Notes: generated from the sequence alone by a model not told the origin. A DNA stretch of 64,000 bases from Candidatus Obscuribacterales bacterium (GCA_965228855.1 CBDDIJ010000003.1:1824001-1888000); one strand, 5' to 3'. Shown: positions 35,272 through 55,627, numbered from the stretch's first letter. Program-made: numbers and translations.

Positions 35272-35412
35272 AATTTATATCTGTTTAATGCGGCCCCATT
35301 TTGGCATGGCTGCGAACGTAGAAAAGTTACTCAAGTTACTCTCTCGGATCCCCAAAGTTTGAATCGAAAACGGACCTTTATTCGGCTGAGACCACACGGA
35401 GGATGCAGCCAC

Positions 35413-37671
35413 ATGAAACTAAATCGACGGAGAGGGGCAACACTAGGTCTGGTGGCAGTATGCGTACTGGTCATCATCGTCCTGGGCGTTGGCTTCTTCA
35501 TCCTTTCTCAAATCCTCGGCGGCGGACGCGAAGTCGCGAACGCCACTGACGCAGGTGTGTTGAACGTAGCAAGAAGAGCTCTTTCACCAACACTTATTCA
35601 AGTCCCGTTGACCGGCGACTCGCCGGGTAACCCGACGGACGACTTCCTGGCTGTTGGTATCGACCCTGCCGGTAATGCCAACACTGGCACCGGTAACCTC
35701 GACTCTACGCACAGAAACATCTCGATGCTCGGTCTCAACCGTATCGTCGCCCAAGCAGTCATCGTTGCCTGCAACGCTCAAGAAATCAATACTACCGCCG
35801 CATCCGGTCACGCACAAAACGTAGCCGCAGCAGCAAAATCAGTTGCAACACAGCTGAAAAATATGGTCGAAGGTGGAACGAAACTTCCGCCGGAATTCAC
35901 CAACGTTGCTCATTCGAACAACACCAAGATGTTCCAGGGCAATAAAGTCACCCTGACGAGCCTCCAGACCGGATTCCTCCGTCCCGGCTTATCAACCAAC
36001 GTTTATATCTCGCCTGGTTTGACCTCGGCGATTAACGTTTCAATGCCGAGCAACTTGAAGTCGAACCATCACTTCCCGAATGCTCTAACGCATGACCTTT
36101 CCAGACAAGATCAGTACATGGCAGGATACATCAACTTCTCCGTACCGGCTGGACCGGGTGGACCCGTTGAAATTTCCGGCGTTCCGATCTTCCCGAAACA
36201 AAAACCTCACTTGGTCGACATCGGCGAATTCAACGCCGGTTCGAGCTCGCCATCGGGTGTCAACTACCTGCCACCTAACGCATTCCGCGCCAATAGCCAG
36301 ACCCAGGAGAATAATTCTTCCGGATTCGGTGGAGCGGTTGCATGCGCACTGGTTGGTGCTCTCGACCAGGACTTTGCCGCTTCGGTTCCAAGAGGATACA
36401 TCCGTATCAAGAACGGACCTGATGCAGGCGCAGCTCACTCATCGATTATTTCGAACCCGGTTGTCGACGGACAAAACGACGTGTTCAACAACGAACTGTG
36501 GCCACCGAACGGCGGCGGCGTCGATATCACCAACAATGGAATTTATGCTCTGAACTCGGAAACCGCAGCTCAGAACTACCTTTCACAGGTCCTCGCGTAC
36601 AATGCAGATAATACAAAACCGGAACCAGATTGGTTGAACCCTCCTTCGGCTCTTCAAATCCTCACCGGTACCGGCGGCGGACACAGAAGTCCAAACGAGC
36701 TTGAACTCAAAGCAGCCGGCACGTCCAAACAGCAGTGCGACGCTCTCACTCTGTGGGATGCACCTTGCAATCACTGGGCACCAGATCCGAACACCGGAGC
36801 AGTCCCTGGTGACAGCAGTATCGTCACCGCTCTTCAAGATCAGTATCACGCTAACAGCACTCAGAACAACCCCGGTTCAAACAATGGCTACACCGCAGTT
36901 GAAGTGCAAAAGCATGACCTGCTCTCACATCGCTACGGCGGTTCCAAGTGCTCGTCCGTCGTTGCCATCGGACGTGACGGCTCCACCAAGTACGGTATGA
37001 AGCAATTCGAGCCATCGGGTTGCTACGCGACACCGCACTCCAACGTCGCCTTCGGCGCACCTGGCTCGCCTCTGGCTTACCTCCAACAAATTGGTAACCA
37101 GGGATGGAAAGGATCGAGAGGCTCTACAGGTACCCTCCCGTCCGGTCCGTTCGCGTCGGCAAGCGCCGACAACCACTCCGGTTCGGCAGCATGCCAGGAT
37201 GACATCATCGACAGAATCTGGAAGAGAATGAGACAAGTCGATCCCAGTATTCCTAGAGATAAAGTTGAGTTGGCACTCTCGCAACAGCCTCTCGAATTGG
37301 GTGAAACCTTGTACCTCCATTGCCCTGGTCCTGGTACCGTAACCATGACCTCCGCAACACCAGCTGATTACTTCAGCTCCGGAGTGCCTAACGATGGCGC
37401 ATCGTCAGCGGCGATCTACAACTGCGAAAACCAGTACAACATCTCCAACACGATCGTCAACGCCAAGCATGGTAGTGGTTCACCGAACGTGAGCTGTCAC
37501 GCAACCGGTGATGCTAACTTCCACGACAGACCATACACCGAAGGTCCTGACTTCCTCCCTGGAATCGACCGCGCGGTATGGACGCCTTCAACAGGATGGA
37601 GAAACCTCCTCGGCGAAATCGAATTCCAAAACGAAGCCGGTGGAGCAGGTACATTCTGCAAACCTAACTAA
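35413..37671 (+). CDS. large Tad/TadG-like N-anchored extracellular protein
   Basis: ATG 35413 after GGAGGA; RRRGATLGLVAV hydrophobic helix then ATDAGVLNVA (TadG/TadE-like pattern); Gly/Asn/Ser/Cys-rich body. Confidence 0.65.
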   Translation: MKLNRRRGATLGLVAVCVLVIIVLGVGFFILSQILGGGREVANATDAGVLNVARRALSPTLIQVPLTGDSPGNPTDDFLAVGIDPAGNANTGTGNLDSTHRNISMLGLNRIVAQAVIVACNAQEINTTAASGHAQNVAAAAKSVATQLKNMVEGGTKLPPEFTNVAHSNNTKMFQGNKVTLTSLQTGFLRPGLSTNVYISPGLTSAINVSMPSNLKSNHHFPNALTHDLSRQDQYMAGYINFSVPAGPGGPVEISGVPIFPKQKPHLVDIGEFNAGSSSPSGVNYLPPNAFRANSQTQENNSSGFGGAVACALVGALDQDFAASVPRGYIRIKNGPDAGAAHSSIISNPVVDGQNDVFNNELWPPNGGGVDITNNGIYALNSETAAQNYLSQVLAYNADNTKPEPDWLNPPSALQILTGTGGGHRSPNELELKAAGTSKQQCDALTLWDAPCNHWAPDPNTGAVPGDSSIVTALQDQYHANSTQNNPGSNNGYTAVEVQKHDLLSHRYGGSKCSSVVAIGRDGSTKYGMKQFEPSGCYATPHSNVAFGAPGSPLAYLQQIGNQGWKGSRGSTGTLPSGPFASASADNHSGSAACQDDIIDRIWKRMRQVDPSIPRDKVELALSQQPLELGETLYLHCPGPGTVTMTSATPADYFSSGVPNDGASSAAIYNCENQYNISNTIVNAKHGSGSPNVSCHATGDANFHDRPYTEGPDFLPGIDRAVWTPSTGWRNLLGEIEFQNEAGGAGTFCKPN

Positions 37672-40693: not shown

Positions 40694-40735
40694 AAGAGAA
40701 GGCCCAGTATCGGAAACGAGCTGGGCACTCTCTTT
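40694..40735. terminator. probable terminator hairpin between convergent genes
   Basis: AAGAGAAGGCCCAG...CTGGGCACTCTCTTT. Confidence 0.55.
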
Positions 40736-42530
40736 AGAATTCCGGAGTCGAAAACGCATAAGCAGGCAGCGTAGTTAAGCGCGAGTCGTGAACGGCTTTT
40801 CCAAAGGTGAAGTTGTAGATCACTTCTTTTCCATCATCAAGAGCTAGATATTTGTTTATATCATCATCCACAAAGCAGCCTATCCCTGTGGCGTCATGAC
40901 CGAGGGCGCAAGCGGTCAAATAGAGCATTTGACCTATGTATCCGGCCTCATAATGCGCGAATCGGTAGCAGCGATCACCATACAGACGGTAGCCTTCCTG
41001 AAAATCTGCAATCATCGAAACAGAAAATGCGCCGTCACTAGCTATATCCTGGAAGCAGCTGGTTTCCTTCGCGCCCTCCCTCTGATCGCGCAAGAGGAGG
41101 GGAACGAGGTTGTTTTCAAACCGATCGAAGTAATAAAGACCTGGTGCGAGACCCTCCACTCGGTGAACGTAGAGATACAAATGAATAAGATGCTCGCGAG
41201 CAGATCGAGTCCAGTGACCATCGGTTACAACATCAACACCCTGAAAGTCAGCAGGGAAACCCATGGTAGAGGTACGCAGAATGTACGTCAGGTGCTTCAA
41301 CGGCATGCCGGTTTTACCATCCATGTCGACAGCAGACCGTCTCTTACGAATAGTTTGGTGAACCGACTTGTGCTGAGAGATCTCGCTTGCGTTCTCAAAA
41401 TCAAACTGCAGGTCTATTGCGTCGCCGGCAGCTTGGACGGGACCAGGTTTTGGTGCCGCCTTCGCAGCTCCCCCGGTAAAAAAATCTTTCTGTTTGCGAC
41501 GAACATCACGGCACGAATCTAAACCATATTTGGTCGCCTGGTAGACTCTCGAGATCTGAGGATAGTCGATAATTTGAGACGACAACTGATTCGGTTTTCC
41601 GATAAACGGGCCCAGAGCAGAAAGTGTCGTGGTCTCCGTTCCAGCCGGATCACCCGGTTGCGCCGCCCCCGCATGGAAAGAATCCAGCGAAAGCACAGAG
41701 TCGTGCGGAGCAAACAAATTAGCAGAACCAGGAGACAGCAGGACCAGAGCAAGCGGCTTCTCATCAGTCTGGTTTAAACCCAGATAGTCTGCAACCTCTT
41801 CGTCAGGGAAAATACCAACGATGCGCATCGACCAGCCCAATGCCGACGCCGACAGAGACAGCGAAGCAAGCGCATGTCCCATATCATGCTGACAGTAGCG
41901 GAATGCGCGCTCCCTGTATTTCCAGGCCTCTCGGAAAAATATCGAGGAGAGACATAGCACCACAGGAGGTGCATCGATCTGAATGCCGAGCCGCCGTAAA
42001 AGCGGAGTGACGGCATCACCGCGCACGCGCTGCTCGAGCTTATGCTCATTGACTTTATAGTGATACGCACCGGCGCCGAGACCGACGGAACCACGACTGA
42101 TGAGCACATGAGTATCAGTCGGATGAAGATTTCCTGATGACGCATTGACGCGAAGCGCCCATCGATTGTTTGTACCGACAACCTGTTTCCATGCACTTAT
42201 CGCCACGCCATAGAAGAGAAGGTTGGAGATGAACTTGAGAAGATCATCCGTTTCCGGCTTCTGTGCATCGCTGTCCCGTTGGCTAAAAACAATCCGAGCG
42301 TTTTCAACGTGTGAAACTGCCGCCTGAAAAAGATCCTGGCTGGAAACCGAGAACTCATGCGGCAGATCAATGAGCGGCGCGCCGTCGAAACGGAGAAACG
42401 GATCGGGCTGACTGTCCCAGGCAAGACGATGACCATACGAATACAGTTTCTGAATCGTGTGCTTGGTGGCGTGATGGTATTCGTAAAACGGGGATTGTTT
42501 CAAATCCGTTTCTGTGCGGCTGAATGGCAT
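40734..42530 (-). CDS. SagB/ThcOx-family (tandem nitroreductase) FMN-dependent oxidoreductase
   Basis: YHHATKH, LRVNASSGNLHPT, REAWKYRERAFRYCQHDMGH, IRKRRS, GIGCFVDD. Start placed at ATG 42530. Confidence 0.88.
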   Translation of the reverse strand: MPFSRTETDLKQSPFYEYHHATKHTIQKLYSYGHRLAWDSQPDPFLRFDGAPLIDLPHEFSVSSQDLFQAAVSHVENARIVFSQRDSDAQKPETDDLLKFISNLLFYGVAISAWKQVVGTNNRWALRVNASSGNLHPTDTHVLISRGSVGLGAGAYHYKVNEHKLEQRVRGDAVTPLLRRLGIQIDAPPVVLCLSSIFFREAWKYRERAFRYCQHDMGHALASLSLSASALGWSMRIVGIFPDEEVADYLGLNQTDEKPLALVLLSPGSANLFAPHDSVLSLDSFHAGAAQPGDPAGTETTTLSALGPFIGKPNQLSSQIIDYPQISRVYQATKYGLDSCRDVRRKQKDFFTGGAAKAAPKPGPVQAAGDAIDLQFDFENASEISQHKSVHQTIRKRRSAVDMDGKTGMPLKHLTYILRTSTMGFPADFQGVDVVTDGHWTRSAREHLIHLYLYVHRVEGLAPGLYYFDRFENNLVPLLLRDQREGAKETSCFQDIASDGAFSVSMIADFQEGYRLYGDRCYRFAHYEAGYIGQMLYLTACALGHDATGIGCFVDDDINKYLALDDGKEVIYNFTFGKAVHDSRLTTLPAYAFSTPEF

Positions 42531-42912
42531 GAGCAGAGCGTTTCCCTTGATGCAGTCGCCGGCGTTCGAACATCTCCGGCGAGCGACCGTTTTTCCAATC
42601 TTTATCCGACCAGTATATATACGATCGGAAATTAGATGCTGCTTCAGCGACGGACTAGCCGACGTTGCCAACAAAAATTCATAGATGCCGTCGCAAACAA
42701 GAGCCAGAGCCAGAAATCATTGCTCGAAACCTTTGTTGTCATGAGACGTTTGAGATTGGGTTGGGTTTTCAACAGACGAAACTCAGGAAAAACCCTATGG
42801 TCTCCTGAAAAACCGGCAAACTATGCTGAGGTATACCAGCCGCTGGTTTTTCCCGCGTGTAGCCCGAGAAAGATTAACCATCGCCAGCGGTTGCTTACAA
42901 AGACGTTAGAGG

Positions 42913-44426: not shown

Positions 44427-45173
44427 CTAACGAGAGTCCGGCACCGGCGCTTCCTCAATCGGTTTTTCGATTGATATCGCATATGGTGCACTACGAACAT
44501 TGTTCGTAGTTACAACGACTTCAGCTTCGCCGTTGCCGATGTGATCGGGAACTTTGACGGTGAGGGAATTGCGAGACGCATACAGCAATTGGGCGTCCCT
44601 TCCGCCGATGGAAACGTGGTTCTCGGACGGGTCGAGACTGAAACCTTTTCCTGAAAGGGTAAGGCGTCCACCTGCACGCGCAGTGGTGGGATTAATACCG
44701 GCGAATTCCGGAGTCAGTGGACCTTGCAGCACCCAACTCATGACCGCACCTTTGGGAGCTGTACCCTCAAGAATCAATGTGTTTATGCCCTGGAATACTT
44801 TGCCTGACAAATCGACATTCACCGTATGGCGCTCAATATAACTTTCGTCAAAAACCAGGTCTGCAGTAGGTTCCTCAGCGCCTTTGAGATTGGAGACGTT
44901 CATGTCACCGCCGATTAAAACTCGAATCCAGTTGAAACCGGCAGTTCCGCCGACACCGTTGTGGATAATCAGCGTCAGCGGTTTCATCACATCGGCTGCA
45001 TCAAGTTTGAACTGGCCAAAAAACCGCTGCATATGTTTCGAATTCGCGACAAAAGGACCTGCTGTTGCCACTTCTTCTACCGCGGTAGTGGAGACCTGAG
45101 CGAAACCAGGCGCTGGTGCAATGCCTAAGGCAAACGCCAAGATGAAAGCAATCAGTCGACGTTTCATTGTCAT
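44427..45173 (-). CDS. secreted IPT/TIG domain protein
   Basis: Signal peptide; C-terminal INPTTARAGGRLTLSGKGF...LTVKVP. Confidence 0.75.
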   Translation of the reverse strand: MTMKRRLIAFILAFALGIAPAPGFAQVSTTAVEEVATAGPFVANSKHMQRFFGQFKLDAADVMKPLTLIIHNGVGGTAGFNWIRVLIGGDMNVSNLKGAEEPTADLVFDESYIERHTVNVDLSGKVFQGINTLILEGTAPKGAVMSWVLQGPLTPEFAGINPTTARAGGRLTLSGKGFSLDPSENHVSIGGRDAQLLYASRNSLTVKVPDHIGNGEAEVVVTTNNVRSAPYAISIEKPIEEAPVPDSR

Positions 45174-45211: not shown

Positions 45212-45334
45212 TTAGAACTCAGCGACGAGTCCGAACATCGCGATCAAAATGATAAAGCTGAAGTACAGGAGGAAGAACCACACCCAGCGGTTGATCAATT
45301 GAGTTTCGGTTAGTTTTACGTCTTTGCCGGCCAT
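45212..45334 (-). CDS. small single-TM protein (40 aa), distal gene of the respiratory operon
   Basis: Hand-translated MAGKDVKLTETQLINRWVWFFLLYFSFIILIAMFGLVAEF; purine-rich RBS; 42 nt after the mvhD-like stop. Confidence 0.7.
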   Translation of the reverse strand: MAGKDVKLTETQLINRWVWFFLLYFSFIILIAMFGLVAEF

Positions 45335-45376
45335 TTCAATCTCTCTTTATTTATCCACGCTTGTTCTGTGCAGAAC

Positions 45377-46018
45377 CTAGTCCTTCTTCTCTTCGGTCTT
45401 AGATTCTTCGGCTTTCTTTTCTTCTGCGGGCTTGTCACCGGAGGTGGTGGCAGCATCAACCTTAGCTTCAGCAGCCTTATCGGCATCTGCCGGGGTTGTT
45501 TCAGCAGTAGGTTTCGACTCTATAGCAGCCTTCGCATCTTCTTTCTTATCGTCACTCGGAGTAGCAGCTGGTGCAGCCGGCTTAGCGGCGGGCGCAGGTT
45601 TGGGTGCGGCTGCCGGAGCAGCGGCGAGCGGTTCCAAACCTTTGATGTAGGCGACGAACTCTTTTGCTTCAGCTTCAAACTTCCCGCGTTGCAGTCTGGA
45701 TAGCCAGAGCGCAAGTACACGTCGTCTTTCGACCGTCTTTTTCAAGCCGGGAGTACGCTCGCCTAAAAGTCTCTCGCGAATCATGCGATTGCCTTCGCGG
45801 TAATAGCAGTCGCCGATCTGGCAGCCGGTGACGATGACTCCGGAAGCGCCGGCTTTAAAGGCACCTTCGATCATCAGCGGTTGTACCATTCCGGAGCAAG
45901 GCAGTTTTACGACTTTCAGACCGGAAACGGTCGTGCAGTTACCTGCTTTGTCGCAGATGCCATCAACATCGGCGGCACGCTCGCATAAAAGTGTTATTAC
46001 TGTCTTCTGATCGGTCAT
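45377..46018 (-). CDS. mvhD: MvhD/FlpD-like [2Fe-2S] protein (hydrogenase delta subunit family) with Ala/Pro/Lys/Glu-rich tail
   Basis: LLCERAAD, VKLPCSGMV, AFKAGASGVIVTGCQIGDCYYREGN supply the four MvhD-type Cys. Confidence 0.85.
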   Translation of the reverse strand: MTDQKTVITLLCERAADVDGICDKAGNCTTVSGLKVVKLPCSGMVQPLMIEGAFKAGASGVIVTGCQIGDCYYREGNRMIRERLLGERTPGLKKTVERRRVLALWLSRLQRGKFEAEAKEFVAYIKGLEPLAAAPAAAPKPAPAAKPAAPAATPSDDKKEDAKAAIESKPTAETTPADADKAAEAKVDAATTSGDKPAEEKKAEESKTEEKKD

Positions 46019-46068
46019 TTCGGTTTACCTTCTGAACTCCGAATCGTGGTCACTGTATATGGTGCCGA

Positions 46069-47217
46069 TTAGGCAGATTGGCTGTTGGCCAATTGTTTGA
46101 TTTTCTCGTTAACATCCGAATCCAGGAGATTCGGCAAATCGATCGCATCGAATGCGCAAGCGCCGACGCAGACGCCGCATCCAGAGCAACGGTAAGGTTT
46201 GACCGTCGCCAACAATTTGAAACGAGAGCCGGCTGGAGCAGGCACCATCTCGATAGCCTGGAACGGGCAATCTTTGAAGCAGAACGAGCAACCTGTACAT
46301 TTCGAATCAACGACTTCCGCCGATTCCACCGGTTTCTTATTAGTGAACGGATACGGAATCAAACAGAGTGCAGCCGTGATCAAGATCATCGAGATCCAGA
46401 AGCCTGTCGTGCCAAGTGCACCGAGAACGGCATAGGGCAACAGGAAGAAAACGTCGATATCCATGCTGGTCGGTTGCGAATTCAAATCTGCAATCTTGGT
46501 TGCGGTGATCGGGAAGAAGTAGACAACCGCAAAGATGATGGTCATCAAAATGTAGTTGAGCGCAGGAGGCGGTGTGATGACCGGTCTCGACATACGCACG
46601 TAGTGGATCCACAGAGCGAAAAGTAGTGAGAACGAAAGTCCGATGTGGATAAACAGGAAGTTCGACAGGGTCAGGTTGGAAATTGTCCGACCGTTTAGGA
46701 ACCAGTTTCTAAGCGGTTCTCCAATAACCGGAACGACTTCGAGAGCCGATACGGTCATACGAGTAAGAAGGAGCGAGCGCTCGTCCCAGATCAGGTAATA
46801 ACCGGTTTGACCGATGAAAAGAACCATCAACAGCAGGACGATACCTGATTCCCACTGAACCCAGCGGTACTGGCGATATCTATCGGTAAACCACACACGC
46901 ACCATGTGAATCAAAATTGCAACGACCATCGCATCGCCGGCGTATCTGTGAACCGCGCGGATCACCGCGCCGAACGGAATATCGTTGGTGATGTATGCGA
47001 CCGAGGTATACGCATTAACGAGGTTCTTCGAGAAGTACGCGTTATCGATCGTCGGCACATAGTAGGCAAAAAGAAGCAGCCCACTTAAGAACAGGATATA
47101 CATGATGAACTGCGGCAAGGCGCCGTGGTAGTACAACGGGTTGTACTTGCTCGTCGATATCTTGTTGAGTAAATCTTCTGTTACCAGAAAAATTTGGGTC
47201 CAGATATTCGTTTTCAT
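46069..47217 (-). CDS. cytochrome b (#2) fused to a C-terminal 2x[4Fe-4S] ferredoxin domain
   Basis: Four His ligands in IRAVHRYAGDAMVVAILIH and FIHIGLSFSLLFALWIH; CTGCSFCFKDCP and CSGCGVCVGAC. Confidence 0.9.
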   Translation of the reverse strand: MKTNIWTQIFLVTEDLLNKISTSKYNPLYYHGALPQFIMYILFLSGLLLFAYYVPTIDNAYFSKNLVNAYTSVAYITNDIPFGAVIRAVHRYAGDAMVVAILIHMVRVWFTDRYRQYRWVQWESGIVLLLMVLFIGQTGYYLIWDERSLLLTRMTVSALEVVPVIGEPLRNWFLNGRTISNLTLSNFLFIHIGLSFSLLFALWIHYVRMSRPVITPPPALNYILMTIIFAVVYFFPITATKIADLNSQPTSMDIDVFFLLPYAVLGALGTTGFWISMILITAALCLIPYPFTNKKPVESAEVVDSKCTGCSFCFKDCPFQAIEMVPAPAGSRFKLLATVKPYRCSGCGVCVGACAFDAIDLPNLLDSDVNEKIKQLANSQSA

Positions 47218-47268
47218 TAGTCCTGTCCTTCGGCTCCCCTCTTCAATTCACGAAATCAAATTTCAAAA

Positions 47269-47607
47269 CTACTTCTTCTCGGGCAACGTCATCTTCTCTT
47301 CGTCATCAGCGCTGCCGATAGCCGCAATCGCAATCGCAGCACCTAAAAGAGCCAAGCCGATAGCCAGGGAGTAAACATATTCGCCTTTTTTACCCTCTGC
47401 CTTTTGCGACTCCAGATGCGTTTTGTGTTTATCGGCCGAGCCGCCATAAATCTCGCCCAGGGCCTTTCCAACCGGCTCGAGGTGCAGGAGTTTAAAAGTG
47501 TGAGGCAAATTATCGACATTCATGTCCAACTCTGCCCACGGCATCATTGCGCTTGCCCAGAGACAAAGCCCAATCGCCGCCGCCATTAATCCAACTCGAA
47601 TAGCCAC
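47269..47607 (-). CDS. hypothetical 2-TM protein in the respiratory operon
   Basis: GTG start 3 nt after the upstream stop; two hydrophobic segments. Confidence 0.7.
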   Translation of the reverse strand: MAIRVGLMAAAIGLCLWASAMMPWAELDMNVDNLPHTFKLLHLEPVGKALGEIYGGSADKHKTHLESQKAEGKKGEYVYSLAIGLALLGAAIAIAAIGSADDEEKMTLPEKK

Positions 47608-47610
47608 TTC

Positions 47611-47991
47611 TCAGCTCTCTCCCTTTTCAGTTACCACGACCTTGTTGCCGCTTTTGGGCTGCAGGGCAAGGTTGATTCTCTCAAACAACTGGATACGTTT
47701 TTTCAAAGTGCCTTTTGCTTTTTCTTCGAAGTAGACCCAGTAGGCATGCACTCCGAGAAACAACAAGGTGAAGACGGTGCCTGCGACCAGAGTGACGGCG
47801 TTGGCCAAACTCAAGTCCTTACCGATCTCGCGCCAACCTTCGAAAAAAAGAGAAAGCGCGTAAGCAGCACAGCTGAAGTTGATCAGCTTGTAGATGAACT
47901 TCACCTTTTGATGCGGGACCGAAGCATGCTCGGCAGTGCCACCATGTTCGGTGCCACCGGCTGATGCCTGCATCTTGTCCTTATTCGTCAT
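47611..47991 (-). CDS. hypothetical 2-TM protein in the respiratory operon
   Basis: Start placed at ATG 47991 (MTNKDK) to avoid overlap with cytochrome b; two hydrophobic segments. Confidence 0.7.
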   Translation of the reverse strand: MTNKDKMQASAGGTEHGGTAEHASVPHQKVKFIYKLINFSCAAYALSLFFEGWREIGKDLSLANAVTLVAGTVFTLLFLGVHAYWVYFEEKAKGTLKKRIQLFERINLALQPKSGNKVVVTEKGES

Positions 47992-48014
47992 CGAAAGTTG
48001 AAGTACTCCCATGT

Positions 48015-49805
48015 CTATTTCTTGGCGTCCACTTGAGCAGCGGATTTGCTGCGAGCCACGAAGAAGGTCACAATCGCTGCAAGAGTGGTCACGAAGCCAC
48101 CAATCATCCACCACCAATCCACTTCAGGTACGCTCATCGGGTAGACCTCGAACGGTTTCGGATTGAGATTGGACAGGTTCATACGATCGTGGAAGTTGAC
48201 GTAATCCCAGGCCCATTTGTTGGCGATCATGAAATCGACCGCGCCTTTGTAGACAGGGTTTTTCTCGTCGAAGGTCGGAATGAGCTGGAACAACCAGTCG
48301 ATACCGGTTGTGGTGTTCTTGAGTTCTTCCAACTTCGCGACGGCAACATCACCGCCTTGAATTTTCTGAATCCACGAATTCACGGCAACCGTGAAGTCGG
48401 TGTTGTAAGGCATTTCAGTTCCTTTCGGAACCAGCGTGCGAATTGTGGTCTCCAGTTCGTCTGCCTTTCCACCCCAGAACGGTCTGAAGAGTAGATAGGT
48501 AAAGCCCTGCGTCACCGGCGACATAAACATTTCGGTTCTTGCCATGTAGTAGTACAGCACAGCGAGAATCGATTGCAGTCCGCCGAGAACTGCCATGACG
48601 ATTGAAGGACGAACTCCTTTTGCCCATTCCTTCGCATCTTTAGATTGCCAGATCATGACGATTTGCCATAGCAAGCCGACATCGATAGCAAGATATGAAA
48701 GTGAACGCCAGAACGGAGGATCGTAGTGAATGTTCGCTACGTTGATAACGATCAGGTATGAGAAGACAATCCACGAGACTCCACCCATGATGGTCATCAT
48801 CAGGATGAACGGGCGCTTCATGATGTTCTTTTCCGGTCCGGCGATCCAGGTGTCGAGGAACGGCAAGAGAATAACCGTCACCGGAATGACCATAGTGATT
48901 TCGGTAGCCACGACCGGCTCCAGGTATTTGTACATCTGATACAAGCCCAGGAAGTACCAGTCAGAAAGAATCGGCAACGGCGTGACGTCCGGGTCGGAAC
49001 GTCGACCTTGAGCAGCCGGGAGAATTACAGCAGTAATCACGAGCATCATGATGACGGTAAAGCGCTTGATCCAGTTGAGCGGCATGCGCACGTAGTTGTT
49101 GTTGTAGAAATAGATTTCTACAAGAATCAAAGGGATCAAGGAGAAAGCCAGGTGAAGAGAGAAGAAGCGCGTAATCGTTTCTTGAGTGATTGCACCACCT
49201 GCGCCAAGAAGAACCTCGGCGGTGTTCCAACCCAAGTGCAACGACTTGACGAGAGGCTCGTAGTAATCGCCCATTACAGGGAACTGGTCCATGTAAGTCG
49301 GGAATGTGGCAAACACTTTTGTAGCCCAAAAAGCGCGCTGGTTCCAAATCAACAAATATCCGGTCAGACCGGAATACATTGACAGGAGAAGCATCACAAG
49401 ACCGATTGCGATGTTGAATTCTTTGCTCGGTTTATAGTCAGCAAGAATGAACATACGGAAAACTCGCATGGTAGCGGCGATAATCATCGCGTCCGCCCCA
49501 TACTTATGAACCCCTCGGACTATATTTCCGAAAGGCACGTGCCATTGAATTGCATAGATCGAGTCGTACGCTGCCGCTTTGGTAGGCACGTACCACATGA
49601 TGAGCATGAGTCCGGAAGCCATCGTAACGAACCAGACCAGATAGAAAATCGGTCCCAGCGCGTAGAACGGATTGGTCTTCGCTTCCAGCTGATGGTGCTC
49701 ATCGAATATGTCGATGTTTTTGAAGCGCGTTCCTAAGTAGTCCCAGAGGAACTGAACGCCTCCCCACACCTTATTTCCAGGTTTGTTTGCAGTGCTACTC
49801 GTCAT
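48015..49805 (-). CDS. petB: cytochrome b (#1), unsplit b6+subunit IV-like, with long C-terminal extension
   Basis: VRGVHKYG, LTGYLLIWNQRAFWA, TITRFFSLH, ILSDWYFL, PFLD; follows the Rieske gene. Confidence 0.88.
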   Translation of the reverse strand: MTSSTANKPGNKVWGGVQFLWDYLGTRFKNIDIFDEHHQLEAKTNPFYALGPIFYLVWFVTMASGLMLIMWYVPTKAAAYDSIYAIQWHVPFGNIVRGVHKYGADAMIIAATMRVFRMFILADYKPSKEFNIAIGLVMLLLSMYSGLTGYLLIWNQRAFWATKVFATFPTYMDQFPVMGDYYEPLVKSLHLGWNTAEVLLGAGGAITQETITRFFSLHLAFSLIPLILVEIYFYNNNYVRMPLNWIKRFTVIMMLVITAVILPAAQGRRSDPDVTPLPILSDWYFLGLYQMYKYLEPVVATEITMVIPVTVILLPFLDTWIAGPEKNIMKRPFILMMTIMGGVSWIVFSYLIVINVANIHYDPPFWRSLSYLAIDVGLLWQIVMIWQSKDAKEWAKGVRPSIVMAVLGGLQSILAVLYYYMARTEMFMSPVTQGFTYLLFRPFWGGKADELETTIRTLVPKGTEMPYNTDFTVAVNSWIQKIQGGDVAVAKLEELKNTTTGIDWLFQLIPTFDEKNPVYKGAVDFMIANKWAWDYVNFHDRMNLSNLNPKPFEVYPMSVPEVDWWWMIGGFVTTLAAIVTFFVARSKSAAQVDAKK

Positions 49806-50380
49806 GCGATCGAACCGGCCTCCAACGATGTTATTTCGATCTTTCCGCCATCCTTCTTGAGCTGGAATTTACGCGGCGGACGCGGCGCCGGACCGGAGAT
49901 AACCTTGCCGCCATGAGCAATGTCATAAACGGAGAGGTGGCACGGGCAGGCGAATACTGGACCAGCGGGTTTGTAGTTATAGCCTTTGGCGCACTCTTCA
50001 GGCTCTTTGACGAAGTTGAAGATGCAACCAAGGTGCGGACAGATGCGGCTGTACGCTTCTACGTCACCATTCGGCAATTTAACGATGAAACCAGGGATGG
50101 TACGAACTTCTTTGAGTTCAGGGTTGTACTCCAGGTATTTCTGGTTGAAAGTAAACGGAATGCAAGTCCAGGGCTCCGGGAAATCTGCATCCGTGAATGT
50201 TGGAATTGGTGGCTCTGCGAGCGGTTGGTCGGATTTACCGAGGATGTCCAACGGACCCAGAGTCGGGCGCAGGAAGCGCAAGAACGGCGAGACCAGCAGT
50301 CCGAAAGTCATTGCCAGCGGAACAGCTGCCACCGTCTTTAGTATCGTTCTTCTCTTAACACCATCACTCATGGCAGTCAC
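49802..50380 (-). CDS. petC: Rieske [2Fe-2S] subunit of a Rieske/cytochrome b complex
   Basis: Tat-like KRRTILK plus TM anchor; CPHLGC and CPCHLSVY boxes; GPAPRP. Confidence 0.93.
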   Translation of the reverse strand: MTAMSDGVKRRTILKTVAAVPLAMTFGLLVSPFLRFLRPTLGPLDILGKSDQPLAEPPIPTFTDADFPEPWTCIPFTFNQKYLEYNPELKEVRTIPGFIVKLPNGDVEAYSRICPHLGCIFNFVKEPEECAKGYNYKPAGPVFACPCHLSVYDIAHGGKVISGPAPRPPRKFQLKKDGGKIEITSLEAGSIA

Positions 50381-50384
50381 CTTC

Positions 50385-51377
50385 TTATTGAACAGATTCT
50401 TTTCTGTCGAGTTTTTCAGCTATGCGCGCCTTGTCAGCGGCCGCCTTATCTTTGATATTAGTTGAAATCGCGCTTGGCGACGCGGAATTGTTGCGCGATG
50501 CTTTCTTGCCTTCAAGAGCTGGCGCGCTGTCTTCGTGGAAGTTTCGAACGTACTGCGTCAGCTTCCAGATATAATCCGCGTCAAACGTGACTTTGTTTCC
50601 TCTGTCTTGTTTGCCGAGGAAGTTGGGCATACCCTCCCAGCGGATACCGTTGGCGATGTGGTCCCAGATTTGTTCGTCGGTTCTGTCGTAGAAACGATCG
50701 AACTGAGTGAAGTTGGCGGGAGCCGGCTGTAGAACCAGACCTTTGTTAAGCTGCCCGTCTCCTGCGCCTCGGCTTCCGTGACACACGGCGCAATTCGCAC
50801 CGAACACGGCTTTCATTGCCAATCGCTCTTCGTCAGAAAGTAACGGAACAGCAAGACTTCTCGTGTAGAAAATCAGGTCCCATCTCTGGCGCTTGCTCAG
50901 CTTATCGAGAAACGCTTCGTGCTTCATGACACGGGGCGCAGCCTCTTTGGTCTCCGTTTCGCTTCCTTCAGCAGTTCCAAGAGCGCTGGTCACAGGCGTA
51001 ATCTCTTCCTTGCCTTCGCCGAAAGAAATCAACTTATATTGATCGACCGGCTTGCGTTGTCTCATACGCTCGACATTGGTAAGGTCGATATCGCATTGAC
51101 CGGCTACGCCTTTGCCGTCGGCACCGTGACACGATGCGCAATTTTGCTGCTGCCAGTAGACACTTCCGTCATAGACAGAAGGTACTGCGTCCGGGAAAAG
51201 AACGACGTCCTTACCGGCAGTAGCATCTCTGTTAGCCAGTTCCGACTCCTTCTGTCCGACACTCACCTGAGATTGGCAAGCTGTCAGGGACACGGCAATC
51301 GGGATAGTAAGGAGCGCAAATCCAAGCAGATTGAATTTGCGAGTTAGTTTTTTCAATCGAGTGAGTTGAGGGTGCAT
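50385..51377 (-). CDS. dihaem cytochrome c lipoprotein
   Basis: Lipobox LTAC; haem motifs CASCH and CAVCH. Confidence 0.88.
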   Translation of the reverse strand: MHPQLTRLKKLTRKFNLLGFALLTIPIAVSLTACQSQVSVGQKESELANRDATAGKDVVLFPDAVPSVYDGSVYWQQQNCASCHGADGKGVAGQCDIDLTNVERMRQRKPVDQYKLISFGEGKEEITPVTSALGTAEGSETETKEAAPRVMKHEAFLDKLSKRQRWDLIFYTRSLAVPLLSDEERLAMKAVFGANCAVCHGSRGAGDGQLNKGLVLQPAPANFTQFDRFYDRTDEQIWDHIANGIRWEGMPNFLGKQDRGNKVTFDADYIWKLTQYVRNFHEDSAPALEGKKASRNNSASPSAISTNIKDKAAADKARIAEKLDRKESVQ

Positions 51378-51416
51378 TTCTATTTCAACTTTACTTGTGA
51401 TACCAGCGAGACGAAA

Positions 51417-51587
51417 TCAATAATTGAAGAACGGAATCCAGGAGACCGCTGCATACATGAAAATAAGCACGAACGCGACGACGAGAAACGGAGGAGGCGG
51501 ACCTTCTCCGATTCGGTATTCCGACACTACTTCGTAGTGCTCTTCGGCTGGTTCTTCTTTAGCTTTTGGATTGCTTGGGTTAGCCAT
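51417..51587 (-). CDS. small single-TM protein (56 aa)
   Basis: Hand-translated MANPSNPKAKEEPAEEHYEVVSEYRIGEGPPPPFLVVAFVLIFMYAAVSWIPFFNY; GAGGTGA ribosome-binding site. Confidence 0.75.
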   Translation of the reverse strand: MANPSNPKAKEEPAEEHYEVVSEYRIGEGPPPPFLVVAFVLIFMYAAVSWIPFFNY

Positions 51588-51606
51588 TTCTCACCTCTAA
51601 CGAACA

Positions 51607-51858
51607 CTAGCTCTGCGACTTGAGGGCCGCGGCGGCTCTGGCGCGCTCGACCAGCGCTTTCGCCCGTTCCGATGCCGACGTGTCTTCGCCGTCATCGAGC
51701 ATGTCGAATTTGGAACCTTCCAGATCCTCGAACTCGCCATTACCGAATGCCCACCACATCGCGATGATGCCGACTACGAAGAATACGGCGCATACACCGA
51801 ATGCTACGTACAATCCCGCATCAAGCGGAGCCTGGTTAAGAATACAGTTGGGACACAT
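51607..51858 (-). CDS. ccoS: cbb3-type oxidase maturation protein CcoS-like
   Basis: TM segment followed by WWAFGNGEFEDLE...MLDD (CcoS pattern); start overlaps the ccoO stop. Confidence 0.8.
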   Translation of the reverse strand: MCPNCILNQAPLDAGLYVAFGVCAVFFVVGIIAMWWAFGNGEFEDLEGSKFDMLDDGEDTSASERAKALVERARAAAALKSQS

Positions 51859-52811
51859 TAGTGCTCATCGCCTCCTGAATGTGGCTCGTACTGCTGCTTC
51901 GTGAGCTTAGGCAAACGAATAGGTTCGAGTTTGTCGAGTTGATCGAGTTTGTCGATTGTTTGCTCGACATCTTGAGGAAGAGTCTTGAGGTACGCGACAA
52001 GGTACCAACGTTCTTCTTCCGTCAAAATCAGGTTGAAGCGCGGCATTCTTGTACCGACGACGCCTTCGGACACGCGATAGAACCACATTTCATCGTCGTA
52101 CTGTTTATAGAACGGTCTGGTGAAGTTTGCAGGTTTCTTCGTCAGAGAAATCGAGTTCGGTCCGTTGCCCTTCGCTTCCAATCCATGACAGGCAGCGCAG
52201 TTTTGCGTGTAGATCCCGCGTCCGGCGTTAGCCGAAGCATCGGAATTTGTGTCTACGTGTTTTCTCTCGTGCAGTGCGAATCCAACCGGCGTGCTGACCT
52301 GATATTCATCAGGCGCTGCAACGTAATGATTGACTGTACGCTTGTTTCCGAGAGTCTGGATATAGCAGACCAGGTCGTTCATATCTCTATCATTCAGGTA
52401 GCTGAAGCTCGGCATGATCGAACCGGGCTTAACAGCGCGAGGTTGAATCAAGTGAGCTTTCTGCCATTCCGAGGGAAATTTGTTTCCTTCGTTAGTCAGG
52501 TCGGGACCGGTTCTAGCGGTACCAAGTTGGTGAGGTGTTTCATACACGTAATCACCAGCCTTAACGAGCGGTCCGTATTCACGGTCCTGCAGACGCGTGA
52601 ACTGGGTGTGGCAGTAGAAGCAACCTTCTCTTACGTAGATTCTTCTTCCGCGAACCGGGTCGCCAACTTTGGCTTCAGCTTTGTAATCGTTTCTTGTGTC
52701 AGACGGGTCTGGTCTGAACAACACCATCGGCATCAACACTGTTGAGAAGATGATGATGAAGAACGTTGAGATGATACCAATGGCACCGAGTCGGTAGCCG
52801 TAGCCATTCAT
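51858..52811 (-). CDS. ccoO: cbb3-type oxidase subunit II (CcoO) fused to a second cytochrome c domain
   Basis: GRRIYVREGCFYCHTQ, GTARTGPDL, PGSIMPSF; second haem motif CAACH with MPRF. Confidence 0.92.
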   Translation of the reverse strand: MNGYGYRLGAIGIISTFFIIIFSTVLMPMVLFRPDPSDTRNDYKAEAKVGDPVRGRRIYVREGCFYCHTQFTRLQDREYGPLVKAGDYVYETPHQLGTARTGPDLTNEGNKFPSEWQKAHLIQPRAVKPGSIMPSFSYLNDRDMNDLVCYIQTLGNKRTVNHYVAAPDEYQVSTPVGFALHERKHVDTNSDASANAGRGIYTQNCAACHGLEAKGNGPNSISLTKKPANFTRPFYKQYDDEMWFYRVSEGVVGTRMPRFNLILTEEERWYLVAYLKTLPQDVEQTIDKLDQLDKLEPIRLPKLTKQQYEPHSGGDEH

Positions 52812-54202
52812 TAGACTTTGACCTCCCGTGTTTTGGCCGTGACTTCGACCGCTTTAGGCGTATAAATAGTGCGGAAGGCGTTGTAGCAAAACAGCGCTTG
52901 TCCCGTCACGATCATGATGCCGCTTATGGCGCGGACGAACCAGTATGGGTACAACGTGTTGGACCACTGGTCGACCGGGAAGCCCATAGCCCAACCTGCA
53001 GACTGAACCAGTCCGGCAACGGTGAGTGAGAAGTACATGATCAAGAAGCCGATGAATTTGAGCCAGTAGTGACCGCGAACCAGTCCCATGCTGTGCCATT
53101 CTCTGCCGGTCAATCTGGGCAGCATGTAATAAACAGCTGAAGTCAGAATGAAGGAGAAAGCACCGAGCAAGGCAGCGTGCGCGTGACCGACGACCCACTG
53201 AGTGAAGTGGATATACCAGTTGATCCAGCGCGTCGCCTGGAACGGTCCCTGCAAGCAAGTCATCAAATAGAAGAGTGCAGAGGTCATCGCAAATCTTAGC
53301 GGTAGATCATCAGCCCCCTGTCCCCACTTACCCTTCATGGTCATAAAGAAGTTGGTGAGAACTGTGAATACTGGAACCAACAAGAAGATCGACGAGATGA
53401 CCGCAATCGCCTTCAACCATTCCGGAACCGGTGATTGAAGAATATGGTGTGTTCCTGTCGGAGCATAAAACAGCGCAATCCCCCAGAATCCGAGCATTGA
53501 CAGTCCGTGGCTGTACAACGGAGCCTGAGTGTAGCGAGGTATCAAGTAGTACATGATGCCGACGCCTACCGTCGTGAACCACATACCCAGGATGTTGTGG
53601 CCGTAGAACCAACCGATGATGGCGTCGTTCAAACCAGGCAAGAACACGAAAGTTCTTTGACCGATGATGTAAACGAGGGGAAACCAGAACAACGAACCGA
53701 GGAAGTACCAGAGGCTGACGTAGAGTTTTTTAACTCTGCGGTGAGCCACTGTCATCAGGACGTTGAATGTGACCGTACACAGCGCGACTGCAGCCATGCA
53801 ATCGAGGATCGCGCCGAGTTCGGCATACTCACGACCTTCCGTGTTGCCGTTCAGGAGGGTGCAGAATGCACCAATCATCAACAGGTTCCAAGCCCACATA
53901 GTGAAGTTGCCGAGGCGCTCCGAAAACAGTTTGTTTTTGCAGAGGGTCGGAACCATGTGGAACATTGAAGCGATGTAACCCATCGAAAGCCAACCGATGG
54001 TCACAGCATTTACGTGCCACATTCTTAAGTGTGGCATTGAGAACTGAGGAATGTTATGGACCAAGTCCGGGTTATAGAACTCCATGGAGGCGAAAAGACC
54101 CGCCCCCATTCCGAACAGTGACCACCACATCGCCGAAACGAGAAAGTTACGGCTGGCGCTCCCTTCCTCGTTGCTCAGGAATTTGTCTAGCAAACCGCTC
54201 AC
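52811..54202 (-). CDS. ccoN: C-family (cbb3-type) haem-copper oxygen reductase subunit I
   Basis: LRMWHVN, GREYAE, WFYGHN, FYAPTGTHH (Tyr positioned as in the C family), VVGHAH. GTG start after AGGAG. Confidence 0.93.
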   Translation of the reverse strand: MSGLLDKFLSNEEGSASRNFLVSAMWWSLFGMGAGLFASMEFYNPDLVHNIPQFSMPHLRMWHVNAVTIGWLSMGYIASMFHMVPTLCKNKLFSERLGNFTMWAWNLLMIGAFCTLLNGNTEGREYAELGAILDCMAAVALCTVTFNVLMTVAHRRVKKLYVSLWYFLGSLFWFPLVYIIGQRTFVFLPGLNDAIIGWFYGHNILGMWFTTVGVGIMYYLIPRYTQAPLYSHGLSMLGFWGIALFYAPTGTHHILQSPVPEWLKAIAVISSIFLLVPVFTVLTNFFMTMKGKWGQGADDLPLRFAMTSALFYLMTCLQGPFQATRWINWYIHFTQWVVGHAHAALLGAFSFILTSAVYYMLPRLTGREWHSMGLVRGHYWLKFIGFLIMYFSLTVAGLVQSAGWAMGFPVDQWSNTLYPYWFVRAISGIMIVTGQALFCYNAFRTIYTPKAVEVTAKTREVKV

Positions 54203-54461: not shown

Positions 54462-55346
54462 TCAAACTTCATCTTGGAAAGGCGAGAGCCATTTTTGCTC
54501 GATCAATTTTTTCCAGCGCTGCTCGTGCACACGATGGGTTTCCGCCAGTGCGCGGACACAAGTTGTTGAAAACAACTTTAATTCGTCAGCATCGATTCCT
54601 TTTACAGGCTTCTTATTAAGTACAGCGGCGAGAATTTCCGCCGCTTTGCAATGAACATTCCGTGAACTGAGCTTTTGTTGAAACTCATCAAGAGCTGCTT
54701 CCAGTTCACTAAGTGCCTCGGTCTCCTTTTCATTTGGAGGTCGCACCTTGGGTTTTGGCTCAACAGGATTTGCCAGATTGATGCCATTAAAGCGATTGGC
54801 TGTTTCAAGTCCTCCTGCCGAGATCCAGGAAGAAGCAGTGTCGGCAGCGAGCTTTAAACTTTTTTGATAGAGGTCGACGTCTTCAGGGGCGACGCGTGAC
54901 AACACATAAGCGGCGCGGCGCGCCCCGCCAGGATCGGGACCGACTCCGACCTTCAATCGATCGAAATTGTTCTTCCCACCCAGACATTCGATTATCGACT
55001 CGATGCCATGCTGACCGCCGGCGCCGCCGCCTTGCTGCAGGCGAACACGTCCAAGAATAAAGGACACGTCGTCGTGAATCACCAGTATGTTGGGAATCTC
55101 AATCTTAAGATAGGAAGCAATAGCGCGAACGGCTTCGCCAGAGAGATTCATGTAAGTATCCGGCTTGAGGAAAATTACATCTTCGTTTTTAAATCTTGTC
55201 TTACAAAAATAGCCTTTGTATTTGCCCTCGAACTTCAGGCTCGCACCAGCTTCGATGCAGAGAGCGTCCACTACTTGAAAGCCGACGTTATGGCGGGTCC
55301 ATTCATACTGTAGCCCGGGATTACCGAGACCTACGACCAGTTTCAT
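54462..55346 (-). CDS. pth: peptidyl-tRNA hydrolase with C-terminal extension
   Basis: MKLVVGLGNPG, TRHNVGF, KPDTYMNLSG, IHDD, GGQHG. Start placed at ATG 55346. Confidence 0.93.
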   Translation of the reverse strand: MKLVVGLGNPGLQYEWTRHNVGFQVVDALCIEAGASLKFEGKYKGYFCKTRFKNEDVIFLKPDTYMNLSGEAVRAIASYLKIEIPNILVIHDDVSFILGRVRLQQGGGAGGQHGIESIIECLGGKNNFDRLKVGVGPDPGGARRAAYVLSRVAPEDVDLYQKSLKLAADTASSWISAGGLETANRFNGINLANPVEPKPKVRPPNEKETEALSELEAALDEFQQKLSSRNVHCKAAEILAAVLNKKPVKGIDADELKLFSTTCVRALAETHRVHEQRWKKLIEQKWLSPFQDEV

Positions 55347-55627
55347 TTCACAAACCCTATAGCGGAGTGAGAGCAAGTTATCGAAAGGGCGAAAACAAGG
55401 CGGCGAGCCGTTTTGCTCCAGCAGAGTCAAGTTTCCGGCACGTCGGTTGCACTGCAAGTCTACTTCCTCGCATCGTACATTATTTATAAACGGATTTATC
55501 AACGCACGCTGTGATGATCTGATCTTAAGCGCTCAACAAGAGATAATATAGTCCGACGGTATTTTTCGCACTCGCCTTCAGGCGGCGCAATGATTTAGAT
55601 CGCTTCATTTTTTAGAGAGGCTCGGAA

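Follow-up and report, generated by a model that had tools for sequence, protein, structure and literature searches.

A 64,000-nucleotide stretch of a Candidatus Obscuribacterales bacterium genome (GCA_965228855.1, CBDDIJ010000003.1:1824001-1888000; hereafter the window), which homologue names place among Obscuribacterales-type Melainabacteria, carries a twelve-gene operon for a C-family (cbb3-type) oxidase and a Rieske/cytochrome b complex. The latter contains two cytochromes b, b1 and b2, and an iron-sulfur (Fe-S) arm made of a ferredoxin domain fused to b2 and an MvhD-like protein. We found that the two cytochromes b are complementary: b1 has an intact quinol oxidation (Qo) site and has lost the ligand pair of heme bH, and b2 holds the ligands of both hemes and has a degraded Qo site. 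The operon was known in outline. With this anatomy, the complex III that it encodes is best filed as asymmetric and separable, having an Fe-S arm hard-wired on its cytoplasmic side and, in Vampirovibrionia, a link to a cbb3 oxidase.

Residues of the two proteins were placed by alignment to solved b6, with 81 rows for b1 (41 from Vampirovibrionia, source sequence included, and 40 from outside this class) and 91 rows for b2 (40 and 51, respectively). In b1, the heme bL ligands H100 and H218 were present in 81/81 rows. The helix-B bH ligand position (114) was Arg or Lys in all 81 (R114 in the source sequence; 34 Arg and 7 Lys within Vampirovibrionia), and position 232 was Tyr in all 41 Vampirovibrionia rows and Phe in 22 of the 40 others. 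His at +14 in helix D was observed in only five of the 81 rows, all from outside the class, where it is likely a relic of the lost bH site. The Qo site of b1 was intact, with Ala at the G158-equivalent position (A161) and SDWY in every row, and the helix-A glycine G51 and the invariant E230 (40/40 rows outside the class for E230) were also kept. In b2, the four His ligands of both hemes (H90, H104, H191 and H205) were found in 91/91 rows, the G158-equivalent was Leu, Ile or Val in 90/91 (L151 in the source sequence; Leu or Ile in every Vampirovibrionia row), and PEWY of the ef loop was replaced by a variable xD[W/V]F-like motif. The G158-equivalent was located by counting 47 residues, ungapped against b6, from the helix-B bH position, which we take to be H111 in Rhodobacter. 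Mean column conservation was reciprocal between the paralogues: 0.99 (cd1) and 0.88 (ef) in b1 vs 0.61 and 0.52 in b2, and 0.59 in b1 vs 0.71 in b2 for the cytoplasm-facing D-E stretch. The same pattern was repeated outside the class. The two proteins share 29% identity, and an AlphaFold model of b1 (mean predicted local distance difference test score, pLDDT, of 78) showed continuous helices B (93-121) and D (208-236). By aligned residues, b2 and not b1 has the full set of four His that each cytochrome b carries in canonical bc1 and b6f complexes, and the reverse is true of the Qo site. Since b1 is without a bH ligand pair and the Qo site of b2 is degraded, this cannot be a standard Q-cycle homodimer. 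The initial annotation had not noted this difference. A cytochrome b6f identity was rejected: both cytochromes b are unsplit, the heme-ci Cys is absent in both (A49 of b1 and Y30 of b2 stand in place of Cys35), and, as annotated before, there is no cytochrome f among the twelve open reading frames (ORFs).

It is likely that b1 and b2 form an asymmetric heterodimer with electron transfer across the dimer. The main argument for pairing, stronger than structure prediction, is that a b1 homodimer would offer the bL electron no exit and a b2 homodimer would have no Qo. The multimer prediction proposed as a check in the initial annotation was run for b1 (residues 15-430) and b2 (residues 1-378) with three hemes and three controls. 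It passed, with a score of 0.65 vs 0.00 for the best control; the mark applied is reached by 116 of 157 solved pairs and 2 of 215 mismatched pairs. The runs shared at least 91% of contacts, partner pLDDT was at least 75, and the predicted interface consisted of helices A and D of both chains. This prediction, which covered the b1-b2 pair alone, may instead reflect likeness to solved cytochrome b homodimers. Both proteins were retained in G105, where the operon is split. A precedent for the crossing is an engineered bc1 whose two halves carry G158W and H212N, respectively, for which excerpts of PMC4330944 report full turnover via bL-bL transfer.

Two further components, the Rieske protein and the Fe-S arm, bear on where the electrons go. 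In the Rieske protein, box II is followed by L-S-V-Y, a signature of S-Y type. Ser at +2 was found in 40/40 Vampirovibrionia relatives and 39/39 relatives outside the class, and the signature was S-Y or S-F in 79/79. Under the signature rule excerpted from PMC4122944, S-Y and S-F centres are predicted to have potentials above or near 260 mV, and PDWY-type cytochromes b couple solely to low or mid-low potential Rieske centres; the Rieske protein of the operon is predicted to be of high potential. The genome carries menaquinone genes of the futalosine pathway (two PF02621 matches and an MqnP-like prenyltransferase). In the Fe-S arm, eight Cys of the b2 ferredoxin domain were invariant in 40/40 Vampirovibrionia rows, and MvhD residues C12, C41, C66 and C71 were kept in 40/40 class rows (C71 in 39/40, one being truncated) and 48/48 rows outside. 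In the Protein Data Bank (PDB), the MvhD-like protein matched solved MvhD (5odc_D, E 5.5e-15). It is the single FlpD copy in the genome, ends in a low-complexity Ala/Pro/Lys/Glu-rich tail of ~85 amino acids (aa) (window 45377-45630), and ranges from 124 to 233 aa among relatives. The ferredoxin domain and MvhD match consecutive stretches of the HdrA2 model (571-644 and 672-773).

We tentatively propose that the heterodimer oxidises menaquinol at one site and that the second electron crosses the dimer to the cytoplasmic Fe-S arm, a course of events that we hold to be quite possible and still short of probable. Menaquinol would be oxidised at b1 only. The first electron would pass from the Rieske protein through the dihaem c lipoprotein and the CcoO haems to CcoN and O2, and the second from bL of b1 to bL and then bH of b2, on to the 2x[4Fe-4S] clusters and the [2Fe-2S] cluster of MvhD, with ferredoxin or an NAD(P)+ reductase as the final cytoplasmic acceptor. 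This route would replace the Qi (quinone reduction) half of the Q cycle. A high-potential Rieske centre combined with menaquinone would supply extra drive, the second electron gaining it because this combination departs from the PDWY-type pairing rule. The reduced acceptor could feed the complex I of the genome: NuoF was not found in the genome, a nuoA-K cluster lacks E-G (ORFs read by eye), so that complex I is without an NADH module, and two POR_N enzymes are present, which together give a ferredoxin-level carrier a sink. Two other complexes are possible partners of the arm, a four-subunit group 3b-like NiFe hydrogenase (G000:C3:667584-672492) and a group 4/Ehr-like membrane complex (G000:C2:2452195-2459670), both labelled by reading.

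Several observations weigh against export, whose outward direction is the weak step. With menaquinone at about -75 mV, the Rieske centre at about +280 mV and a membrane potential of about 150 mV, the outgoing electron would reach only about -250 to -300 mV, which would barely serve for NAD+ and is not low enough for a typical ferredoxin. MvhD in methanogen Hdr complexes feeds electrons in, the arm matches the C-terminal ferredoxin-MvhD part of the HdrA2 model, and no MvhD partner is encoded in the operon. Although the canonical Qi His position of b2 was Thr, Ser, Gln or Ala in 40/40 Vampirovibrionia, it held His in 9/52 rows outside the class, and the missing canonical residues would be compatible with another quinone-reducing site. 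Besides, the mechanism rests on ligand and motif patterns, gene linkage and co-occurrence, and the quinone might also be ubiquinone or plastoquinone.

These points lead to the first alternative, the same heterodimer with the arm as an input, in which reduced ferredoxin or an MvhD-docking dehydrogenase would reduce quinone together with bH, each giving one electron, at a single Qi site of b2. Such a unit would be a ferredoxin/quinol:O2 oxidoreductase working by Mitchell's original Q cycle, much as has been suggested for heme ci in b6f; excerpts of PMC5600118 describe the donor 'd' of Mitchell and the entry of electrons from ferredoxin at heme cn. All heterodimer evidence applies equally to it, the arm resembles the HdrA C-terminal ferredoxin and MvhD through which electrons enter, a single Qo per dimer suits a supply of one electron from each of two sources, POR_N enzymes were found in the genome and NuoF was not, and input is thermodynamically easy. 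Furthermore, cytoplasm-side H31, R208, R211 and P212 of b2 were invariant in 40/40 Vampirovibrionia. However, H31 as a universal ligand was rejected, being present in 2/51 b2 rows outside the class and Thr or Leu in the other 49; b2 has neither the canonical Qi His nor the heme-ci Cys, and the S-Y/S-F Rieske signature in all 79 relatives of a menaquinone user would be left unexplained. By our bookkeeping, its energy yield would be no better than that of a dehydrogenase without pumping combined with a bc complex of the ordinary kind, of which the genome has two. We consider input doubtful and yet nearly as likely as export.

These two further Rieske/cytochrome b pairs, which have all four His, a PEWY or PDWY motif and a G-Y Rieske (G000:C3:757396-761689 and C3:1071541-1079401), mean that the b1/b2 complex is not the only complex III of this genome. 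One of these loci is flanked by two membrane proteins that resemble cytochrome bd subunit I by eye, one of them with a CxxCH motif, and the other belongs to a caa3-type operon of the A-family that includes a fused cytochrome b-c.

The oxidase adjoining the b1/b2 complex passed the test of a C-family oxygen reductase. Aligned to solved cbb3 subunit I, CcoN has the six His ligands (H63, H202, H252, H253, H340 and H342) and the helix-VII cross-link tyrosine (Y246), which together with E125/E128 were found in 41/41 rows. Its best PDB matches were cbb3 subunit I, and it scored 287 bits on TIGR00780, under the cut-off of 583. G238 and Q318, also in 41/41 rows, align with His and Glu of the solved subunit, positions that we take to be K-channel H243 and b3-proximal E323; this suggests an altered proton path or tuning of heme b3. 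CcoO is a haem c subunit (FixO, E 4.5e-31) with a fused second c domain, and two CxxCH motifs were present in 40/40 relatives of CcoO and 40/40 of the dihaem c protein, the latter with a lipobox-like motif in 28/40. The dihaem c protein is the likely bridge from Rieske to oxidase, standing in for cytochrome c1 or f and for CcoP. Neither FixP_N above its cut-off nor FixG_C was found in the 95%-complete genome, a result that covers CcoP and ccoG of the canonical CcoP and ccoGHI set, which is common in Proteobacteria and not universal. The earlier statement that there is no canonical ccoP therefore stands with a caveat: the dihaem c lipoprotein weakly matched the ccoP model (E 2e-11, far under the cut-off) and the 56-aa protein gave a weak FixP_N lead (rank-4 Atlas cluster, 0.88, with FixP_N in 13% of cluster members), so that CcoP may be split or replaced. 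The 56-aa protein is possibly a detached CcoP N-terminal helix, a weak lead; this identity was not borne out by a Pfam match (25 members), a PDB match or a FixP_N match at the locus, and the Atlas lead was below 0.9. CcoS has a CxxC motif at its start (MCPNC in the source sequence), as do many relatives, possibly for binding copper in a genome without a FixG_C match.

As regards distribution, profile search of 151 class genomes found b1 in 87 and b2 in 89; this supersedes an earlier single-protein search (62/151), which undercounted. b2 accompanied b1 in all 87 genomes; of the two b2-only matches, one begins 0.4 kb and the other 1.3 kb away from the start of a contig. Three sampled families were without b1/b2 (0/35, 0/8 and 0/2), and of 301 genomes sampled across the phylum only three, all Vampirovibrionia, had b1. 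A b2 search of 50%-identity representatives returned 299 proteins at E <= 1e-30. Among the best 150 of these, MvhD was fused in 122, four His were kept except in fragments, and the Qo motif was degraded; most of the fused proteins (P0134, P0136, P0143 and similar, 650-770 aa) have an extra helix and a ~170-aa domain without a Pfam match after MvhD. A contig scan with eight unfused relatives gave 80 loci, 53 of which were analysed (L071-L121, L136 and L144), with L120 and L136 dropped as Vampirovibrionia-like before outside-class counts. By record name, the outside carriers included Armatimonadota, Ca. Fervidifonticultor, Sysuimicrobium (Sysuimicrobiota), Deinococcales, Bacillota and Symbiobacterium metagenome-assembled genomes. 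The gene order dihaem c, Rieske, b1, tmA, b2, mvhD recurs in these organisms, with tmA in most loci. In a quick tree that kept the ferredoxin columns, 18 b1 fell on one side of a branch (support 99) and 17 b2 plus 12 fused proteins on another (100; Shimodaira-Hasegawa-like approximate likelihood ratio test, SH-aLRT).

It is possible, if somewhat less so than export in the source organism, that these proteins represent a heterodimeric complex III family of at least four bacterial phyla in which the Q cycle has been abandoned, menaquinol is bifurcated, and O2 pulls an electron to cytoplasmic Fe-S. If true, cells would obtain low-potential reductant, or feed a ferredoxin-type complex I, at no cost in proton-motive force. 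bL-bL crossing in normal complex III turnover has so far been argued from engineered asymmetric mutants; a natural enzyme without another route would make this path obligatory and directly testable, and would be a natural counterpart of the cross-inactivated bc1 built to probe inter-monomer transfer.

The C-family oxidase is genetically joined to the Rieske/cytochrome b complex, and all c haems are tethered to the membrane, in agreement with the initial annotation, which went further and read the operon as an obligate III-IV supercomplex. In this second alternative, the complex would run a near-ordinary Q cycle, and the Fe-S arm would be an addition with an accessory function or a regulatory one. 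The cco genes adjoin the Rieske/cytochrome b genes in 40/40 Vampirovibrionia loci, every c haem is tethered, a III/IV fusion has been noted in print (in the excerpts cited below), and a cross-dimer Q cycle with a Qi site in b2 and an idle arm would be possible. Obligate association was nevertheless not supported. Among 39 outside loci with Rieske, b1 and b2, ccoN lay upstream in 10 and a distant oxidase downstream in 2, no oxidase was found within at least 5.5 kb upstream of Rieske in 17, and 10 were too short; the module thus lacked adjacent cco genes in 17 of the 29 informative loci and is separable from cbb3. Linkage to one oxidase type held throughout Vampirovibrionia (40/40) and not overall. 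For five genomes among these 17, 10 of the 12 COX1 matches were fetched (two were left out, and the genomes are draft); the nine that were scored gave 30-53 bits on the CcoN profile, on which true CcoN scores at least 500, and several carry the A-family HPEVY motif. The full-length oxidase matches of three draft genomes (G428-G430) reached just 30-37 bits. Also, the operon is split in G105, neither b1 nor b2 alone is capable of an ordinary Q cycle, and the arm is unlike a dispensable add-on since its eight Fe-S Cys and four MvhD Cys are nearly invariant. We therefore judge this reading improbable. At three outside loci (L073 7577-10088, L095 11717-14166 and L102 2829-5513), the Rieske/b module is followed immediately downstream by a heme-copper subunit I of divergent sequence, which scored 167-372 bits on the CcoN profile and is accompanied by FixO-like and c subunits.

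The least probable view, by a small step, is that of separate complexes, a b1 homodimer with a non-His bH-like heme or none and b2-MvhD as an independent transmembrane wire: b2-type proteins do occur without Rieske (on plasmid NZ_CP156080 and, in excerpts, in the Ferrigenium eNOR operon), b1 keeps G51 and E230, with Y232 kept within Vampirovibrionia, five of 40 outside b1 keep the helix-D His, and the two are deep paralogues (29% identity) on opposite sides of the quick tree, but Arg would be an unusual heme ligand, Phe occupies position 232 in 22/40 outside b1, a b1 homodimer would leave the bL electron without an exit, no b1 was found without b2 among the 151 genomes, and the heterodimer prediction passes. 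The plasmid locus (L041 7981-14520) has a fused cytochrome b-ferredoxin-MvhD protein beside an eNOR-like heme-copper enzyme, labelled from gene order, without Rieske; heme o synthase, SCO and hemerythrin are also among its neighbours.

With regard to known systems, the source operon is almost certainly the published Melainabacteria III-IV operon, which has a C-family oxidase adjoining two petB and petC in the same class. The precedent named in the initial annotation was located in excerpts of PMC6349859 and its supplement ('petB, petB, petC' beside a type C oxidase), where this III/IV fusion is annotated as b6f; Soo et al. 2017, as paraphrased in excerpts of 10.1101/531145, likewise describe a C-family reductase with two cytochrome bc proteins. 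The b6f annotation is unsupported because the heme-ci Cys is missing and the cytochromes b are unsplit. Unlike the present analysis, these accounts, in the portions cited, do not include the small subunits, the Fe-S arm, the heme loss or a mechanism. Portions of PMC4040986, PMC4451040 and PMC8235220 contain pathway-level statements only, and those of PMC3509893, PMC11214002 and PMC7908018 nothing direct on the b1/b2 system. No account of complementary heme and Qo loss was found in the literature covered; some of it may already be in Soo 2017 and Dibrova 2013. Our reading would define respiration in the non-photosynthetic sister group of oxygenic cyanobacteria and would correct a b6f annotation used in arguments on the origin of aerobic respiration.

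In the division of sites there is a likeness to the engineered bc1 (B-B and BS-B fusions; excerpts of PMC4330944), which has Qo in one cytochrome b, bH in the other, and only the bL-bL bridge between them, with natural changes in our case at equivalent positions (L151 of b2 and the bH ligands of b1). In contrast to this laboratory construct, which ends in a normal Qi site, the source organism has two natural paralogues, the bH side bears a ferredoxin domain and MvhD, the expected quinone is menaquinone, and the oxidase is of cbb3 type. By sequence family, b2 belongs to the PDWF-FeS clade named by Kao and Hunte 2014 (PMC4122944, excerpts), having a cytochrome b with a 4Fe-4S domain and MvhD and a DWF-type motif; the assignment was made by architecture, the named sequences of that paper lying outside our comparison. 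That clade was described as a sequence clade only (Magnetospirillum, Turneriella and Alicycliphilus), and MvhD is separate in the source operon; our reading would give these cytochromes b a first functional context. Excerpts of the same paper note bH loss in Pyrobaculum and the discarding of sequences lacking a heme His, a step that would have filtered out b1-type proteins; four-His filters in surveys have thrown out the b1 half. Compared with bc1, b6f and the actinobacterial bcc-aa3, the source operon shares Rieske, the cytochrome b fold, Qo motifs, a dihaem c bridge to the oxidase and a joint operon; those complexes are homodimeric, each monomer having two hemes b, a Qo and a Qi, whereas in our case two paralogues split the sites between them and the C-family oxidase is separable. 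The HdrA/QmoB module has the same C-terminal ferredoxin-MvhD arrangement, with a solved MvhD match, but the source operon has no flavin domain, hydrogenase or HdrBC, and the module sits on a membrane cytochrome b. Excerpts of PMC5600118 list a subfamily H and a clade G' of unknown function, to which we made no match of the b1/b2 system. A related idea appears in excerpts of 10.64898/2026.01.22.701106, where an eNOR operon (Ferrigenium) with two Fe-S-bearing cytochromes b is proposed to act as a quinol:NAD+ oxidoreductase, but without Rieske.

The operon itself is listed in Table 1. As annotated before, twelve co-oriented ORFs were found, all on the minus strand (54202 to 45212 of the window) and tightly spaced, with intergenic gaps of -4 to 51 bases. 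A Pfam/NCBIfam scan named eight, and four small membrane proteins matched no family.

Table 1. Genes of the operon, in order of transcription (positions in the window).
Product	Position	Strand	Evidence
CcoN, C-family heme-copper oxygen reductase subunit I, 463 aa	52811..54202	-	Pfam COX1
CcoO with second class I cytochrome c domain, 317 aa, N-terminal helix, 2 CxxCH	51858..52811	-	FixO + Cytochrom_C
CcoS/FixS maturation protein, 83 aa	51607..51858	-	PF03597, E 4.5e-8
56-aa single-helix protein, conserved	51417..51587	-	no family
Dihaem cytochrome c, 330 aa, 2 CxxCH, lipobox-like Cys34	50385..51377	-	Pfam/NCBIfam
Rieske [2Fe-2S] protein, twin-arginine-like N-terminus	49802..50371	-	PF00355
Cytochrome b1, 596 aa, C-terminal extra helices	48015..49805	-	family scan + b6 alignment
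tmA, two-helix accessory protein, 133 aa	47611..48012	-	no Pfam
tmB, two-helix accessory protein, 112 aa	47269..47607	-	no family; position conserved, sequence poorly
Cytochrome b2, 382 aa, fused C-terminal 2x[4Fe-4S] ferredoxin domain (C307-C354)	46069..47217	-	family scan
MvhD/FlpD-like [2Fe-2S] protein, 213 aa	45377..46018	-	PF02662
40-aa single-helix protein ending FG[LI][VI]AEx	45212..45334	-	alignment of relatives

Gene-order conservation across Vampirovibrionia, another check proposed earlier, was confirmed: nine core genes had identical order in 39 of 40 relative loci, which places the cluster beyond chance. As these loci were picked by b2 matches (20) or b1 matches (20), the figure gauges order and not prevalence. 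The 56-aa protein was found in 40/40 loci, tmA in 39/40 and the 40-aa ORF in 38/40. The sole exception in order was G105, in which the operon is split after tmB (L067, G105:C58) and b2 and mvhD lie on another contig (L047, G105:C64), ~580 bases apart. Promoter and terminator scans of the operon were at chance level (7 vs 8.3 and 17 vs 12.8 +/- 3.9), and one run labelled RNA-Seq, flagged as probably DNA, gave even coverage over all 30 bins. The 40-aa protein had no credible PDB match; a CydX match (E 1.7) was dismissed as chance, and comparison with the helix that follows MvhD in fused proteins gave no specific match. A secreted TIG-domain gene 38 bases past the operon end (window 44427-45173) was excluded as a member, since it occupies this place in only 3/20 loci. 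Ahead of the operon lies a peptidyl-tRNA hydrolase gene (window 54462-55502), similarly placed in 13/20 loci. Elsewhere in the window, two tandem long membrane proteins of ~550 aa (14993-18264), a 770-aa protein with a pilin-like N-terminus (35359-37671) and a 646-aa double nitroreductase-like protein (40734-42674) were labelled by eye.

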